Positions 15 to 50,708 of a stretch of 58,172 nt of DNA are shown here, in pieces; position 1 is the first letter of the stretch; each line of letters begins with the position of its first letter. The notes beneath the pieces were generated by a model, which was not told the origin of the DNA, did no database searches, and saw only the letters and a list, made by a program, of their open reading frames with translations. The DNA is from Candidatus Thorarchaeota archaeon (GTDB lineage: Archaea; Asgardarchaeota; Thorarchaeia; Thorarchaeales; Thorarchaeaceae). The translations under genes were made by a program, and so were the position numbers. Location of the stretch: NCBI GenBank assembly GCA_048882385.1, contig JBHLRQ010000007.1, positions 1 to 58,172 on the forward strand. The letters run 5' to 3'.

Positions 15-115
15 GTAGGAGGGGGGAGTTTCGTAATTGAGGGCATGTAACGAAAAACTAGCCCACACGCTCGCCTTCTTTCTGTTTAAGATGGTTTATG
101 CCCATCGAATCCTAC
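15..115 (-). ncRNA. Candidate structured RNA or 5' leader at the window edge
   Basis: Closing stem 15-20/110-115 (GTAGGA/TCCTAC), hairpins 29-34/50-55 and 90-94/102-106, complementary GGGCAT 41-46 / ATGCCC 98-103. TTTAAT box on the minus strand at 146-151. Confidence 0.35.
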
Positions 116-319
116 TTAGACTGTTATTAACCCGATATATTACCTATTAAAGTTTGTTTTGGTACTGAGATATTTCACAAAATTAACGGCGTTTAGACGT
201 CGTAAAAGTGCTTTGGAGAGGTTTCGATTTAACGAACAATGTAAGCAAAAAGCGCTTATTTTGGAAGTTAAACCAAAGCAATTCACTATTGATAATAGTT
301 AGAATAAGATAGAGAGAAC

Positions 320-27839: not shown

Positions 27840-27952
27840 GCAATTATCATCGGTTCCGGGCTATATCGCTTTTGATTCTTTCTGAACGACCTCATTGACT
27901 ACAAATTTTGATGACAAAGGGCGGGTTTTTGAATTATGTCATCGTATTGATA

Positions 27953-28666
27953 CTATTTCTTCATTAGGAGTACAGGATTTTCTAGTAGGGCTCTTACTGA
28001 ATCTTTCACAACGAATTGTTCATCGCCTACTTGTACCTCAAGGAGTTTTCTGAGCTCAAATCTCCTGAGATATCCTACAGCTTGATCGCGTTCCAGATTC
28101 AGGTCTTTCATCAAGTTTTGAAGCCCTTTCTTATTCCCGCTAAATTCTGCAAACTTGCTAAAGACTGAACTCCATTGCATCATAACGAGGTAGAGTAAAG
28201 TCCTGAGCATACTGTCAACGTTCTCTCCGGTTTTAGCAGATACTGGAAAAACCGGTAATCCAGCTAGGAATCTAAGATTCTTTCTTAGTTGATCTACTGG
28301 CCGTGATTTTTTCAAATCTTGTTTGTTTGCCGCCACAACACAGGGTACGCCGGGTAGAAAGAACGCGATCTCTCTGAAGAAGAGCTTTGCACGAGCGTCA
28401 GATTCAGGATCAACTGAGTCAACAACAAAGATGATTCCATCTGCACCCTCACTGAGAATCTTACGCATTGTTCGGAACCGGAGCAATCCTGGAGTACCAA
28501 ACATGAAAACATTCATTCCATCCACATTGGCAAGTCCATGATCCATTGCAATGGTGGTTCCACCTCTTTCAACATTGATACAAGCACCATTTGTGATATG
28601 ATGAATCATCTGGCTCTTGCCAGCTTCATATGGACCTGTCACAACTATCTTCATTCTACCACCCAT
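27953..28666 (-). CDS. Small GTPase (ATP_bind_1/MglA-related) with a possible C-terminal wHTH
   Basis: GPYEAGKS, TTIAMDHG, FGTPG, NKQD, SAK. Confidence 0.85.
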   Translation of the reverse strand: MGGRMKIVVTGPYEAGKSQMIHHITNGACINVERGGTTIAMDHGLANVDGMNVFMFGTPGLLRFRTMRKILSEGADGIIFVVDSVDPESDARAKLFFREIAFFLPGVPCVVAANKQDLKKSRPVDQLRKNLRFLAGLPVFPVSAKTGENVDSMLRTLLYLVMMQWSSVFSKFAEFSGNKKGLQNLMKDLNLERDQAVGYLRRFELRKLLEVQVGDEQFVVKDSVRALLENPVLLMKK

Positions 28667-28818
28667 GCTCTGACTCTGAATCGTTATGTTTCCAATATTC
28701 TGATGCTCATTATAAGGTTTGTAGTGCTATTATCGGTCTAACAAGTTCGGGCGCCAGATGCATTATCCACAGGTCTAAATCATTGAATTGCGCAAAATAG
28801 AAAACAGATTCGTAGTGG

Positions 28819-28898
28819 GAGACCGGCTGCTCGCAGCAGCAATCCTCAAACATGGAGCCCATAGGGTTTTTCCATCGTTATCATGGGAACTCGGTCTC
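28819..28898 (-). promoter_or_regulatory. Eukaryote-type (type II-like) SECIS element overlapping the selD stop codon
   Basis: Minus strand reads AUGA-UAACGAUGGA-AA-AA-CCC-UAU-GGG-C-UCCAU-GUU-U-GA-G, i.e. AUGA N10 AA N21 GA. Helix AAC(G)AUGGA/UCCAUGUU; outer stem GAGACCG/CGGUCUC. Confidence 0.85.
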
Positions 28899-29915
28899 GA
28901 TAAATTGAACATCTTGTGCAAGACACGCACAAGGTGATCCTTTAGCTTTCACGACTCTGCCTACAGGCCAACAGGGTAATTTCTTCTCTTCAAGGAATTC
29001 TTGAAACGTTTCTTCCTTCTTCGAATCTAGAAACACAAGCATTCCACCTGCTGTTTCAGCTCCGAAACCACTTGAGAGTTTATGATCAAAATGCTCTGCT
29101 AATTGGAGAGTACCACGAATCACAGGTATCGCATCGATGACAACATCAACTCCACTTAGAGAGCTGACGTTCCCAGCATGACCGAGTATGCCAAATCCTG
29201 TGACATCAGTTGCCGCGTTTACTCCAACCTTTTGCATTGCTTGAGCAACCTCGAGATTACTGAATGTCATGATTCTTACTGCAACATCCTGTATTCGTTT
29301 AAGATTGGCTTCCTTGAACTCAGACAAGAGCGCGTCACGTTTCTCGTCCTTGAGGTCTCTATAGGATCTCATCGCAGATTGGATACCCAATGGTTTTGTC
29401 AGGAGAACCACATCACCGACCTTTGCACCACGTGAGTAGATAATGTCGCGGGGGTGCGCAGTACCAAGTGCAATTCCTCCAAACACAGGTTCAGGATTAT
29501 TGATTGTTTGACCACCTGAGAGCTTTGCATGATGACGTTCCATGAAGTCCTTCATACCTTTGAGGACTCCTACAACAATCTCTTCAGGCAATTGCATAGG
29601 ATATGCGAGAAATGCCTGAAGTGAGAGAAGATTTGTCACACCCATTGCAAAGACATCATTGGTCGCATTACAAGCAACAATCTCGCCCTGAATATGGGGA
29701 TCATCATGGATTGGTGTGAAGATATCCACATTCTCTACAATAGCGACATTATCGTTGATTATGCGGACCACAGCATCATCACCGATTTCCTCGGTTGTGG
29801 TAGAACCTGAAGGAAGTAAGTTCGCTTTTTGTAGAAGACGAGTGAGATCATCCTGTGTGACCTTACAACTTCAGCCGTGAGTATTAACCATTGCAGTCAA
29901 TCGTACTTCAGGCAC
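28881..29915 (-). CDS. selD: Selenophosphate synthetase, selenoprotein (Sec15), 344 aa
   Basis: GTG start at 29915 preceded by AGGAGG. Reads MPEVRLTAMVNTHG-U(TGA 29873-29871)-SCKV..., in frame with the listed ORF. GDDA, DIFTPI, NDVFAMG, GGQT, LTKPLG, TDVTGFG, ETAGG. Confidence 0.95.
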
Positions 29916-30066
29916 CTAGTGACTCAGCCTCCTGTTAACTTTAGGGCAATCATGCCCAACCCATTTCTGTATAGACTGAGTAATAAGATTCTGGGTCAAG
30001 CATACTTCATAAGCCTTATAGCAGGTTTCACGAAGCAGTGCACCGTAATCAGAGAGCGTGATTTAG

Positions 30067-31512
30067 TTGGACATCAAGAAAGTATCAGAGAACATTCACA
30101 AAATATCGGAAGACACGCAACCATGTATGAAAGTCCCAGTAACAGTTTTTGCATCAGATCTACTTGTGCGGAAAATGAAACAAGACAAGACCTTCACACA
30201 AGCCACAAACGCAGCCTGCCTTCCTGGTATTTACAAACATAGCATTGTATTGCCTGATGGCCATCAAGGGTATGGATTCCCCATAGGTGGAGTCGCAGCT
30301 ACCGACTATGAAAGTGGGGTAATATCTCCTGGAGGTGTTGGATATGACATCAACTGTGGTGTTCGAGTACTAAGAACAAATCTTGATGAGAAAGATGTTC
30401 GACCAAAACTCCGAACTCTTATTGATGCTCTCTTTGAAGAAGTTCCAACAGGAGTTGGTCGACAGGGCAGGATAAACCTGCGCGATTTCAGAGGTGTGGA
30501 TGAAGTACTTTCTAATGGTGCCCAGTGGGCTGTCGAGAAAGGATATGGATGGCAAGAAGATCTCAATCATCAAGAAGCCAACGGAAAACTGGATATTGCT
30601 AATCCAGATGATGTACAGGATTCAGCAAAAAGCCGCGGTCTCAAACAGAGTGGTACTCTAGGATCAGGAAATCATTTTCTTGAGATACAACTCGTTGACG
30701 AAATTTATGATGAGCAAGCAGCCAAAGCGATGGGTATAACCAGAGAGAAACAAGTAATGGTGATGATTCATAGTGGGTCAAGAGGTCTCGGTCACCAGGT
30801 CTGTTCCGAGTACATTAAGGTAATGACTCAAGCCATGAGGAAATATAAAATCGACCTACCTGATCGAGAGCTTTGTAGTGCGCCCACAACTTCACCAGAA
30901 GGGCAGTCCTATCTCGGAGCGATGAGTGCAGCGGCAAACTATGCTTTTGCCAACAGACAAGTCATGATGCATTGGACAAGAGAAACATTTGCAAAGGTCA
31001 TGGGACAATCAGCAGAAGATTTGGATATGGGACTCATCTATGATGTGGCTCACAATATGGGGAAGGTAGAGGAGCACGATATTGAGGGAAAGAAAACCAA
31101 AGTAGTTGTCCATCGAAAAGGAGCTACACGCGCATTTCCTCCCAGACATCCCGAAGTTCCGAGTAAGTATCGCAACATTGGACAACCAGTCCTGATACCT
31201 GGAACAATGGGAACAGCATCGTATATTCTGATTGGAAATGAGAAAGGAATGGATTTGACTTGGGGATCAACTGCTCACGGTGCAGGTCGATTCATGAGTA
31301 GATCCAAGGCCAAAAAGCAGTTCTTTGGAAAAGAAGTACAAAGTAAACTCGCTGAAGAAGGAATAATTGTGAGAGCTACCAAGGGTATTGTGATAGCAGA
31401 AGAAGCCCCTGGAGCATACAAGGATGTAGATGAGGTTGTCAAAGTATCAGATGCTGTTGGGATTGCTACCAAGGCAGTGAGATTACGACCCATTGGCGTC
31501 ATCAAGGGTTGA
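30067..31512 (+). CDS. rtcB: tRNA-splicing ligase RtcB
   Basis: PDGHQGYGFPIGG, VGYDINCG, GSGNHFLE, HSGSRG, HRKGATR, HGAGR, EEAPGAYKD. Confidence 0.97.
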   Translation: MDIKKVSENIHKISEDTQPCMKVPVTVFASDLLVRKMKQDKTFTQATNAACLPGIYKHSIVLPDGHQGYGFPIGGVAATDYESGVISPGGVGYDINCGVRVLRTNLDEKDVRPKLRTLIDALFEEVPTGVGRQGRINLRDFRGVDEVLSNGAQWAVEKGYGWQEDLNHQEANGKLDIANPDDVQDSAKSRGLKQSGTLGSGNHFLEIQLVDEIYDEQAAKAMGITREKQVMVMIHSGSRGLGHQVCSEYIKVMTQAMRKYKIDLPDRELCSAPTTSPEGQSYLGAMSAAANYAFANRQVMMHWTRETFAKVMGQSAEDLDMGLIYDVAHNMGKVEEHDIEGKKTKVVVHRKGATRAFPPRHPEVPSKYRNIGQPVLIPGTMGTASYILIGNEKGMDLTWGSTAHGAGRFMSRSKAKKQFFGKEVQSKLAEEGIIVRATKGIVIAEEAPGAYKDVDEVVKVSDAVGIATKAVRLRPIGVIKG

Positions 31513-45822: not shown

Positions 45823-46662
45823 ATGAAATTGCAGCAGTCTGACTGCCAGAAGCAGGAAAAACAAGCTGAAGAACTGGCAGATTCTGGCAAGAATGAAGAA
45901 GCAATGATTCGCTTTCAGAAAGCTGGCGACTGCTGGAACAGATGGGAATCATTCTCAAAAGCAGCTAATGCATACGAGAGAGCGTATGAACACGGGATGC
46001 TAGCACACCAATATGAGAAGGCCGCACGCATAATGACTAGTGCTAGTGCAGCGTGGATAAAATTTGGAGAACATGAGAAGTTTGAGATTGATTGCCAAAT
46101 TGCCGCTCAAGCCTATGTATCTGCTGCTGAAGAGAAGAAGGACCCATATCTACTGCTTGATGGATCATTCTGTGCTATTACAGGTGGAGACATAGACCTC
46201 GCACGACAATTGATTGACGCAGTCATAAAAATAACAAAGGGTGAAGTCACAGGTCTAATTGATCTGGCTCTAATGTTAATGGAGTATCGTTTTGGTGATG
46301 CCAATAAACTAATGGAATCAGTCATAGCAAATGAAATCACAAGGAAGGAACTTGGAAAACTGAGACGTTCATTCGAACTTGTTCTATCAGGTTTCATCCG
46401 CACATCACTTGAGTCTGAAGCTGCTGTGACAATAGCGAGTCTGGAAGAGAGTACTGGGTTAGACCGAAATCAACTGAAGAAATTGATTGTAAGAGCTATT
46501 GAGAACGGGTATATTCCAGCATATCTTGATGAGGTCACTGATGAGCTGATTGTAGATAGTGATCGATATGACATCTCTGTTTTGGAAACTAGAAAAAGAC
46601 CAATACTCAGCAGAGACCTAGAGGATCCAGGTGCGTGGGATATAGACTTAGACGAAAAATGA
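45823..46662 (+). CDS. Helical-repeat (alpha-SNAP/TPR-like) protein with a C-terminal PCI-like winged helix
   Basis: FQKAGDCW...KAANAYERA repeats; C-terminal [11 protein letters not shown]...[25 protein letters not shown]. Confidence 0.65.
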
Positions 46663-49223: not shown

Positions 49224-50708
49224 TTGGGTAGACTTGTATCTGATGAGGTCAGAAAAGAAGTTCTGGCCAAGATAACTCCAAGCAAGAAAGAGTTAGAGAA
49301 TCAGAAAGAAGTCATTTCTAGTCTTAAGGAAGTACTTATCGAAAAAGCAGAGTCCATCGAGTTTGCATTCTCCTTCATTGAACCTCAAGGATCAACAGGA
49401 CTAAAACAGACTCAGCTCAGAAATGCCGCTGATATCGACCTGTTTGTAGGATTAAATCCCTCAGAATATTCAGAAATCTTAGAATTACCTCAACAAAAAA
49501 GACACTCAGGTCTTGACAACTTAATGACCAGTCTAGTGAATGATTTGTTGATGCCCGCAGTTACTGAATTAGAGGTGTCAAATGTAAGGAAGACATACTC
49601 TCAACATCCTTACGTATCGTTGGAAATGAACGGACTGGAAGTTGATATTCTCGGTTGTTTTGATATTGATTCAAAATATCTCTCAGAAAAGGGTCCGATT
49701 ACTGCAGTTGATAGGACTGTGCATCACACACGATATGTAGCAGATAATCTGACTGAAGAGAAAAGAGAGAACGCGAGAATTCTGAAATCATTTGTCAGGG
49801 GTTGCCATGCATATGGCGATAGATGCGCTGTAGGGAGAATGGGTCTAACAGGTGTTTCTCTAGAATTGATCTCAATAATTTCTGTGGATCTTAATGATGC
49901 ATTCTACATGTTGGAACATCTTGATGAGAATCCTGTTGACCCAGAAAATCGCACATTAGCAGAACTTAGAAAGACAAAGTCATTTAGGGATAATCATATT
50001 TTCCTCATAGATCCAACAGACCATCGGCGAAACATTGCTTCAAGTTTCACGCCCCGATCATATAGATGGGTAAAATATAGAATTTTAGAGATGAGAAGAA
50101 TTTCCAAGCAAGAAAATTCAAAATCAATTACGAATATTCTCTTGGAAAAACCAATTCCAACCACTACTTTACCAAATTGGTTGAAAAAGTATACTGCGGT
50201 ACTAGAGTTCAAATCAGATGGCTCATCGCATTACACGATTCTACGTGATAAACTCTACAGATTAGCAAGAAAATCTCAGGCGCAATTATTGAATGAGAGA
50301 ACAGGTGAACCGAGGTTTGGATTAAGTCTTGTTGAAGTGTATTTTGAGAAGGACAAATATTCAGTAGGGGTCATAGTTGAAAAACACAAGATTGGAGAGG
50401 AATACCAAAGACGAGGACCCCCAGTAGAATTGCATGATGCATCAGAGGAATTTAGAAAAAGTCATCCTGATTCAAAACTAAAGGATGGATTCTATTGGGT
50501 CATAGAGAAAAGAGACTGGGTGTCTGCATCAGATCTTTTTGAAGACATTCTGCTAAATAATCCTATAGAAGGATTAACTCCAACCAAACTGAGTGATGTT
50601 TCAAAGAAAGTACTCAATGTGCTATGGAGATTTGTACTTCCTATAGAACCTGAATTCAATCAGAGAATAACAACAGTTAAGGACAAAAACCAGGTCAGAA
50701 CTGGGTGA
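49224..50708 (+). CDS. cca: Archaeal class I CCA-adding enzyme
   Basis: GS..K.T.L....DIDLF, YSQHPY, TAVDRT..HT, LIDPTD..RNIAS, GPP. Confidence 0.85.
   Translation: MGRLVSDEVRKEVLAKITPSKKELENQKEVISSLKEVLIEKAESIEFAFSFIEPQGSTGLKQTQLRNAADIDLFVGLNPSEYSEILELPQQKRHSGLDNLMTSLVNDLLMPAVTELEVSNVRKTYSQHPYVSLEMNGLEVDILGCFDIDSKYLSEKGPITAVDRTVHHTRYVADNLTEEKRENARILKSFVRGCHAYGDRCAVGRMGLTGVSLELISIISVDLNDAFYMLEHLDENPVDPENRTLAELRKTKSFRDNHIFLIDPTDHRRNIASSFTPRSYRWVKYRILEMRRISKQENSKSITNILLEKPIPTTTLPNWLKKYTAVLEFKSDGSSHYTILRDKLYRLARKSQAQLLNERTGEPRFGLSLVEVYFEKDKYSVGVIVEKHKIGEEYQRRGPPVELHDASEEFRKSHPDSKLKDGFYWVIEKRDWVSASDLFEDILLNNPIEGLTPTKLSDVSKKVLNVLWRFVLPIEPEFNQRITTVKDKNQVRTG

Follow-up and report, generated by a model that had tools for sequence, protein, structure and literature searches.

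The closest described relatives of the element presented here are the eukaryote-like SECIS elements of Asgard archaea. Mariotti et al. 2016 (PMC4989117) describe the lokiSECIS, where the AUGA of the Lokiarchaeota VhuU.1 gene doubles as its stop codon, and a distinct type-II-like SECIS for SPS/selD; many of the stops are UGA, and a minimal-distance argument is offered for why a UGA so close to the SECIS is not recoded. Huang, Xiao & Zhang 2024 (PMC11227280), who covered >400 Asgard genomes, report frequent overlap between UGA stops and the AUGA motif, on account of which their SECIS search began 30 nt upstream of the stop. Their text gives selD as mainly type II, with AUGA_GA or GUGA_GA and [U/A][A/G]AA in Thorarchaeia, and with selD lower stems of the form G[A/U]G_C[U/A]C. 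SBP2 is reported as not found in Asgard archaea (PMC4989117, PMC9723677). For bacteria, a 2026 review (PMC13188914) describes SECIS elements in coding sequence that are melted by every ribosome and must refold. The accessible text of this review and of Sun et al. 2021 (PMC9723677) holds nothing further on the overlap, and our literature search returned no paper proposing a termination-coupled feedback.

The window analysed here, the whole stretch of 58,172 nucleotides from a Candidatus Thorarchaeota contig, carries a selD gene (selenide, water dikinase) whose 3' end very probably forms a functional type II SECIS of the eukaryote-like Asgard kind, with a probable kink-turn at its base and the gene's own stop codon as part of its core. 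The ORF scores above the cut-offs of two NCBIfam equivalogs (NF010705, 302.3 bits with a cut-off of 291; TIGR00476, 220.5 bits with a cut-off of 125), and its product has the Pfam domains AIRS and AIRS_C. Together with the in-frame UGA in the N-terminal HG-U-SCK motif, this places the product among the Sec-containing SelD proteins, and the orthologs likewise carry one in-frame TGA at the same N-terminal catalytic Cys/Sec position. The Sec machinery is present in the same genome (3.7 Mb, 95.3% complete, 256 contigs), including a tRNA-Sec, a SepSecS gene (contig C4:6255-7373, minus strand) and, adjoining it on the same strand, a selB/EFSec match above the curated cut-off (C4:7879-8913). Two genes encode L7Ae domains (C9:47338-47616 and C75:7790-8068). 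The sequencing data examined comprise 19 DNA runs (contigs) and one RNA run, which yielded a single 228-nt contig, ~94% identical and confined to 29648-29875, the SECIS region lying outside it.

Among the aragorn results are also two tRNA-like predictions of 99 nt (tRNA-???), located on two contigs, whose anticodon is called as the four bases 'atat'. The scan produced only 23 tRNA lines for a 95%-complete genome, a low count likely to reflect intron-containing or split tRNAs, which are poorly handled by aragorn.

At its 3' end, selD reads UUC CCA UGA UAA on the minus strand. The stop occupies 28883-28881, the UAA follows at 28880-28878, and every SECIS part listed by the original prediction is found in place (Table 1). 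The AUGA core (28884-28881) is composed of the last A of the Pro codon CCA and the UGA stop, and is followed by 10 nt up to the A-run. The 5' half of the element falls within the last six codons. Along the 5' arm, the coding strand of the lower stem is followed by AGU, UCC, the bulge (C-A/G-U), GA, a U.U-type position and the 8-bp helix. The apex holds the A-run and the 3-bp ministem with its 3-nt loop, and the 3' arm continues with the helix, N-GA-GGA, 2 nt, the side hairpin of 5 bp with its 5-nt loop, and the lower stem. Side hairpin, lower stem and K-turn together make up a three-way junction.

Table 1. Features of the selD locus and its putative SECIS (window positions; RNA letters given 5' to 3' on the strand of the gene).
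Feature	Positions	Strand	Remarks
selD (selenide, water dikinase)	28881..29915	minus	ORF and translation; GTG start, 344 codons plus stop
In-frame Sec UGA of selD	29871..29873	minus	codon 15, motif HGUSCK; 989 nt upstream of SECIS core
Lower stem, 5' strand GAGACCG	28892..28898	minus	in codons Glu-Thr-(Glu); partner 28825-28819
Proposed K-turn canonical (C) stem, 5' strand UCC	28886..28888	minus	codons Phe-Pro; partner GGA 28845-28843
Proposed K-turn 3-nt bulge CAU and G.A/A.G-forming GA	28881..28885	minus	contains stop UGA and AUGA core
In-frame UAA after stop	28878..28880	minus	U.U position of the fold, then the two A-U pairs that open helix 2
Helix 2 (upper stem), 5' strand AACGAUGGA	28871..28879	minus	G 28876 bulged; 8-bp helix
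Unpaired A-run AAAA above helix 2	28867..28870	minus	A-rich bulge kept in relatives
Apical ministem CCC/GGG, loop UAU	28858..28866	minus	type II feature; 97.8% of alignment cells paired
Helix 2, 3' strand UCCAUGUU	28849..28856	minus	pairs with AACGAUGGA
3' GA of core (28847-28846), then C-stem 3' strand GGA	28843..28847	minus	
Side hairpin GCUGC-UGCGA-GCAGC (also GCUGCU-GCG-AGCAGC)	28826..28840	minus	3' strand, between K-turn and lower stem
Lower stem, 3' strand CGGUCUC	28819..28825	minus	partner of coding strand GAGACCG
U-rich tract UGUUUUCUAUUUU	28794..28806	minus	13 nt after SECIS
Ras-like GTPase gene	27953..28666	minus	downstream of selD

The core follows the sequence pattern of a kink-turn, with a UCC/GGA C-stem, a CAU bulge and GA/GA, and its pairs are mostly invariant. 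In box C/D RNAs, L7Ae binds a kink-turn in which strands of the type RUGA...(C/U)UGA carry tandem G.A pairs, with a U.U next to them and a bulge of 3 nt; the sequence of the selD element fits this pattern, whereas the guide function is absent from it. At the K-turn, the consensus register of RNAalifold is shifted by one relative to the register proposed here, and the single-sequence MFE fold places CA/UG pairing across the proposed kink-turn. One relative reads UUU CGA UGA opposite GA-GAA, a C-G to U-A double change that gives a UUC/GAA C-stem and breaks the RNAalifold register. The proposed register is likely to be correct, though not firm, since this sole compensatory variant is a single event and the other pairs are invariant.

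The features of the published type II model (Huang et al. 2024) can be found one by one at this site. The core 5'-GA_[G/A]A-3' is represented by GA 28882-28881 and GA 28847-28846, and the upper stem has 8 pairs and one bulged G (7-15 bp with <=2 mismatches in the model). In the apical part, the ministem has 3 bp (2-8 in the model), the bulge 5 nt, composed of AAAA and C (4-12), and the loop 3 nt (2-6). The element also lies within -30 to +600 at the 3' end of a Sec gene, in a genome with Sec machinery.

Beyond the element, the U-rich tract is possibly an archaeal oligo-U terminator, judging from its composition. A palindrome, TTGCGCAA, is located at window positions 28788-28795, ~25 nt past the SECIS and between selD and the Ras-like GTPase gene. 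By eye, TTG[C/T]GCAA occurs at a comparable place in 7 of 18 genus relatives, and the palindrome could be a regulator site.

For the comparison within the same GTDB family (f1), all matches reaching the C-terminus were taken, giving 60 selD 3' ends (18 + 42); one N-terminal fragment and long SelD-related paralogs, 37-39% identical and without the TGA, were left out. The core UGA is the stop codon in 60/60 of these genes, a count that overstates the independent support because the relatives are kin, and it is part of AUGA in 35, GUGA in 24 and CUGA in one. AUGA and GUGA differ by a synonymous change at the third position of the Pro codon. All seven pairs of the lower stem form in 59 of the 60, with the compensatory variants GAGACUG/CAGUCUC (five times), GAGGCCG/CGGCCUC (three times), GAAACCG/CGGUUUC and GAAACUG/CAGUUUC (twice each). 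The 3' UTR strand matches changes at the third position of the Glu and Thr codons as well as a Thr-to-Ala change; across the 60-sequence alignment, synonymous codon changes are compensated in the 3' UTR. The C-stem UCC/GGA is kept in 54/60 relatives by a fixed-offset parse, which also recovers the 3' GA of the core in 55/60; by eye, three more have the GA with a 1-nt spacing shift, and two differ (AA and UA). The side-hairpin loop is YGCRA in 54 family members.

These results bear out two claims of the original prediction, that the core UGA is the selD stop and that the lower stem is built of coding bases. Its suggestion that the arrangement had not been described is not upheld. The overlap of stop and AUGA in Asgard archaea is already contained in the texts of Mariotti 2016 and Huang 2024, and being common to the relatives and in print, it is ordinary for the group.

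Covariation was assessed on smaller alignments. The RNAalifold consensus of 18 sequences has 23 pairs, 10 of them with a compensatory change. On the 23-sequence alignment A2, the proposed structure pairs in 98.1% of 483 cells and 8/21 pairs change on both sides, several of them at synonymous codon positions. These values overstate the independent support, because the covariance model used to fit A2 came from 18 of the same 23 sequences. None of 500 shuffles reaches the observed values, and partners slid by 1-3 columns pair in 21-47%. Compensatory changes are found at all three outer pairs of helix 2 and at 3/6 pairs of the side hairpin (23 sequences), so that the covarying structure in relatives agrees with the branched, eukaryote-like SECIS originally predicted.

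The bare motif AUGA-N10-AA-N21-GA is weak evidence taken alone, its 12 matches in the window (5.7 +/- 2.4 in shuffles) not exceeding chance, and the 96-nt single-sequence fold is mildly unusual (-28.8 kcal/mol, z -2.28). The comparison with a SECIS model, proposed originally as a check, gave a divided answer: Rfam RF00031 SECIS_1 aligns in exactly the expected register, with its AUGA placed at 28884-28881, but the score of 15.5 bits (E 5.3) stays below the gathering score of 35 and does not reach the membership threshold. It is the covariation across relatives that lifts the element far beyond chance, and on this comparative ground we regard it as a real, selected RNA structure beyond reasonable doubt. 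The other Rfam matches in 28600-29100 (U6atac, snR75, TEV pseudoknot) are chance hits.

A covariance model, R1, was built from 18 selD 3' ends. Its sole match is the selD site, both across the 3.7-Mb genome and, at 94 bits, in the window, and the distant selD loci do not match it at E <= 1. As R1 finds the selD family elements alone, it is family- and gene-specific and unfit to survey other SECIS types. A crude genome scan for RUGA-helix-AAA-GA was noisy (59 hits; reversed control, 27). The bulged G kept selD itself out of the hits, among which were the elements at vhuU and on contig C41. The scan requiring a hairpin with a 5-nt NG[CU]RA loop gave 7 hits against 6 in the control, with selD as the only real one.

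The vhuU gene is a small ORF on contig C10 (~247..95, minus strand) with the sequence ...RCYDC-U-LSCGAH..., split from the [NiFeSe] hydrogenase large subunit. It ends GGA UGA, and a type I SECIS has this UGA in its AUGA core. This layout is found in 25/25 genes, namely in this genome and in 24/24 fetched orthologs. The hairpin after the vhuU SECIS was considered as a SECIS side hairpin and dropped as support, since the same ~55-nt sequence occurs three times on contig C12 without a SECIS. This repeat follows the vhuU SECIS directly (C10 ~15-70, minus strand; C12:48067-48123, 46222-46273 and 49696-49729, minus strand) and consists of a CGCAA-loop hairpin and then a pyrimidine tract containing CACCUCCU and resembling the 16S 3' end. 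It is also present in the relatives G013, G014, G236, G150 and G002, and could represent a module common to 3' ends or terminators or, read from the opposite strand, a conserved start region.

The element on contig C41 belongs to an ORF of 267 codons (C41:10056-10859, plus strand) with C-S-S-U at residues 22-25 (TGA codon 25), referred to here as the CxxU protein, which has no Pfam or NCBIfam match. The ORF ends CGA UGA on the RUGA of a type I SECIS, and so do all the orthologs compared (12/12, its own and 11/11 fetched). In these orthologs the element shows a covarying helix and a side hairpin, and its lower stem lies in coding sequence. Homologs are found in 48/55 family genomes searched, nearly all full-length ones with the in-frame TGA and the one in G280 without it; the other Asgard families have just distant, TGA-free homologs (21-31% identical). 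The AlphaFold model is all-beta with a C-terminal helix at low confidence (pLDDT 61.7), and its fold matches to mutarotase-like beta-sandwich domains (TM 0.4-0.49) are weak leads. The CxxU protein is not obviously among the seven Asgard selenoprotein families in the text of Huang et al. 2024, and may be an unreported selenoprotein family. The nine matches to FlpD/VhuD genes were rejected as Sec genes; they have no TGA, and where two of them end in AUGA, this is not a SECIS but the stop overlapping the start of the following gene.

Outside the family, a sample of 22 selD 3' ends from six other Asgard families (5 + 17 picked to cover families) were compared, and the stop lies inside the SECIS core in 0/22. 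The alignment of Asgard selD 3' ends suggested originally hence sustains the overlap and the covariation within family f1, but not the overlap in these six families. Here, a stop of UAA, UAG or UGA comes after a protein end of ...IEV or a similar sequence, the RUGA core follows 6-17 nt later, and the lower stem starts at the stop or just past it. Judged by eye on MFE folds, most of the 22 have the three-way junction and a side-hairpin loop with GCA, GCGA or GCAA. The selD of family f1 reads four codons further, with T-E-F-P replacing V-stop, into the 5' strand of the SECIS. As the outgroups end ...IEV-stop while family f1 reads on, the overlap appears to be derived, a direction of change suggested by outgroup comparison and not by a tree. 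Most likely it arose by loss of the ancestral stop after ...IEV or by 3'-end compaction.

The copy number and type of selD also vary. Many genomes of family f9 carry tandem pairs of Sec-containing selD (for example, G032:C5:26613-27608 and 27944-28894), each copy with its own SECIS after a UAA stop, which agrees with a remark on multiple copies in PMC11227280. In G001, G003 and G012, which are of the same genus as the genome described here, the only selD-like match is a stretch, 37-39% identical, inside a TGA-free ORF of 743-750 aa (a SelD-related fusion type). The CxxU protein, too, is absent from G001 and G012, yet G001 retains vhuU with its TGA. This may indicate selD loss or replacement, or an assembly gap.

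By analogy with the described systems, the selD element would direct Sec insertion, recruiting EFSec/Sec-tRNA for codon 15, whose UGA stands 989 nt upstream. Because its 5' half sits within the last six codons, the UGA that such a core must have is the first in-frame stop and would end the protein. A ribosome with the core UGA in its A site would by then have pulled apart the lower stem and the C-stem together with the 5' strand of helix 2. From this ribosome geometry we infer that the terminal UGA would not be recoded, since there would be no folded SECIS at that moment and the UGA would be closer than the minimal distance. The double constraint of RNA pairing plus coding would then have frozen the overlap.

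A rather unlikely extension of this reading is that the family-wide overlap in selD, vhuU and the CxxU gene is a selected, self-insulating stop and not a frozen accident. The core UGA would then be a stop that can never be recoded, and termination would be coupled to the remodelling of the SECIS and its bound factors. The side hairpin, seen in the selD of seven Asgard families, could serve as the docking site of an Asgard SECIS-binding factor or as an SBP2-free tertiary contact that stabilises the kink.

The original prediction went further and proposed a regulatory device, where each terminating ribosome unfolds the SECIS and could thereby exert translation-coupled feedback on selD, negative in the form considered here, with the UAA as a fail-safe. 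Melting of the 5' half at each termination seems unavoidable from the geometry of the ribosome mRNA channel, and the overlap is invariant in the family, as this model would have it. However, the RNA constraint alone explains the invariance, since the core needs the UGA and the codons before it are stems. The same overlap in vhuU and in the CxxU gene means that it is not specific to the selenium-donor enzyme, and the selD genes of the other six families do without it. Bacterial SECIS elements are melted by every ribosome as well, yet they are not feedback devices (PMC13188914). The fail-safe does not hold across the family either: the next codon is a stop in just 7/60 relatives (3 UAA, 3 UGA, 1 UAG), and the distance from the core UGA to the next in-frame stop ranges over 1-77 codons. 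In this genome the tandem UAA is incidental; its bases provide two A-U pairs to helix 2 as well as the U.U position. We consider a feedback device unlikely.

Very improbable is the possibility that the element is another 3' structure, such as a terminator, a stability element or an L7Ae-binding kink-turn, with recoding at codon 15 driven from elsewhere. The U-rich tract after the element, the score below threshold with the eukaryotic SECIS model and the lack of a known binding protein would be in line with it. Against it, selD, vhuU and the CxxU gene, which are unrelated selenoprotein genes, and the orthologs of all three have the same RUGA...GA core and A-rich apical bulges at their ends, and the element has the published type II features. 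The search for another SECIS driving recoding, through the flanks and after the Sec codon, also came out empty, in agreement with the original prediction. On the strand of the gene, a crude scan of 28600-30100 for a stem-flanked 5'-GAA/3'-A bulge, the mark of the euryarchaeal GAA_A SECIS, was negative, and there is no bacterial-type hairpin directly 3' of the Sec UGA, where 29873-29810 folds at -9.1 kcal/mol (z 0.17). The fold of the remaining 3' spacer of selD is nothing unusual (z 0.49).

That the terminal UGA is itself read as Sec (C-terminal ...EFP-Sec), with the UAA as the true stop, might be considered as UGA is followed by an in-frame UAA in this genome and a penultimate Sec exists in other proteins. 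It is barely credible, since 53/60 relatives have no stop in the next codon, so that read-through would add 4-77 variable residues, since a SECIS could not stay folded while the ribosome decodes its core, and since the same minimal-distance argument is made by Mariotti 2016 (PMC4989117).

We see the selD SECIS as a clean, strongly covarying example of the Asgard eukaryote-like type and as reference material rather than a discovery. The selD features cited above from Huang 2024 all match the present locus, the lower stem GAG...CUC fitting the published G[A/U]G_C[U/A]C. The model in their main text covers the core, upper stem and apical part only, whereas the present element adds the side hairpin with its three-way junction; the overlap is also not stated there as universal for Thorarchaeia selD, whereas it is found throughout the 60 genes of family f1. 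The lokiSECIS of VhuU.1 shares the eukaryote-like AUGA...GA core, the CDS overlap and the AUGA-supplied stop with the selD element, but it is a type I element without a ministem and belongs to another gene. For SPS/selD, Mariotti 2016 gives the structure as 'downstream of' the gene, whereas the present SECIS overlaps the CDS. The side hairpin is unmentioned in the main texts of both papers, whose figures or supplements may show it and the selD overlap; as a hairpin on the 3' side with a loop of the GCRA type, it is possibly undescribed. Added here are the universal overlap in one family for three genes, the codon compensation, the probable canonical kink-turn and the conserved accessory hairpin. 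If this hairpin were a protein-binding site, it would bear on what replaces SBP2 in archaea.

Compared to more distant systems, bacterial SECIS elements are likewise partly translated and so melted by ribosomes, but they lie directly after the Sec codon and bind SelB, whereas the selD SECIS is 989 nt downstream and at the stop. With the eukaryotic type II SECIS, for example that of SEPHS2, the selD element shares the AUGA/GA non-Watson-Crick core, the A-rich motif, the ministem and the presumed action at a distance, and selD/SEPHS2 is the gene proposed as the bridge to the eukaryotic SECIS. The selD element differs from its eukaryotic counterpart in having a shorter helix 2, a probable canonical kink-turn with a 3-nt bulge, the side hairpin and the overlap with the CDS.
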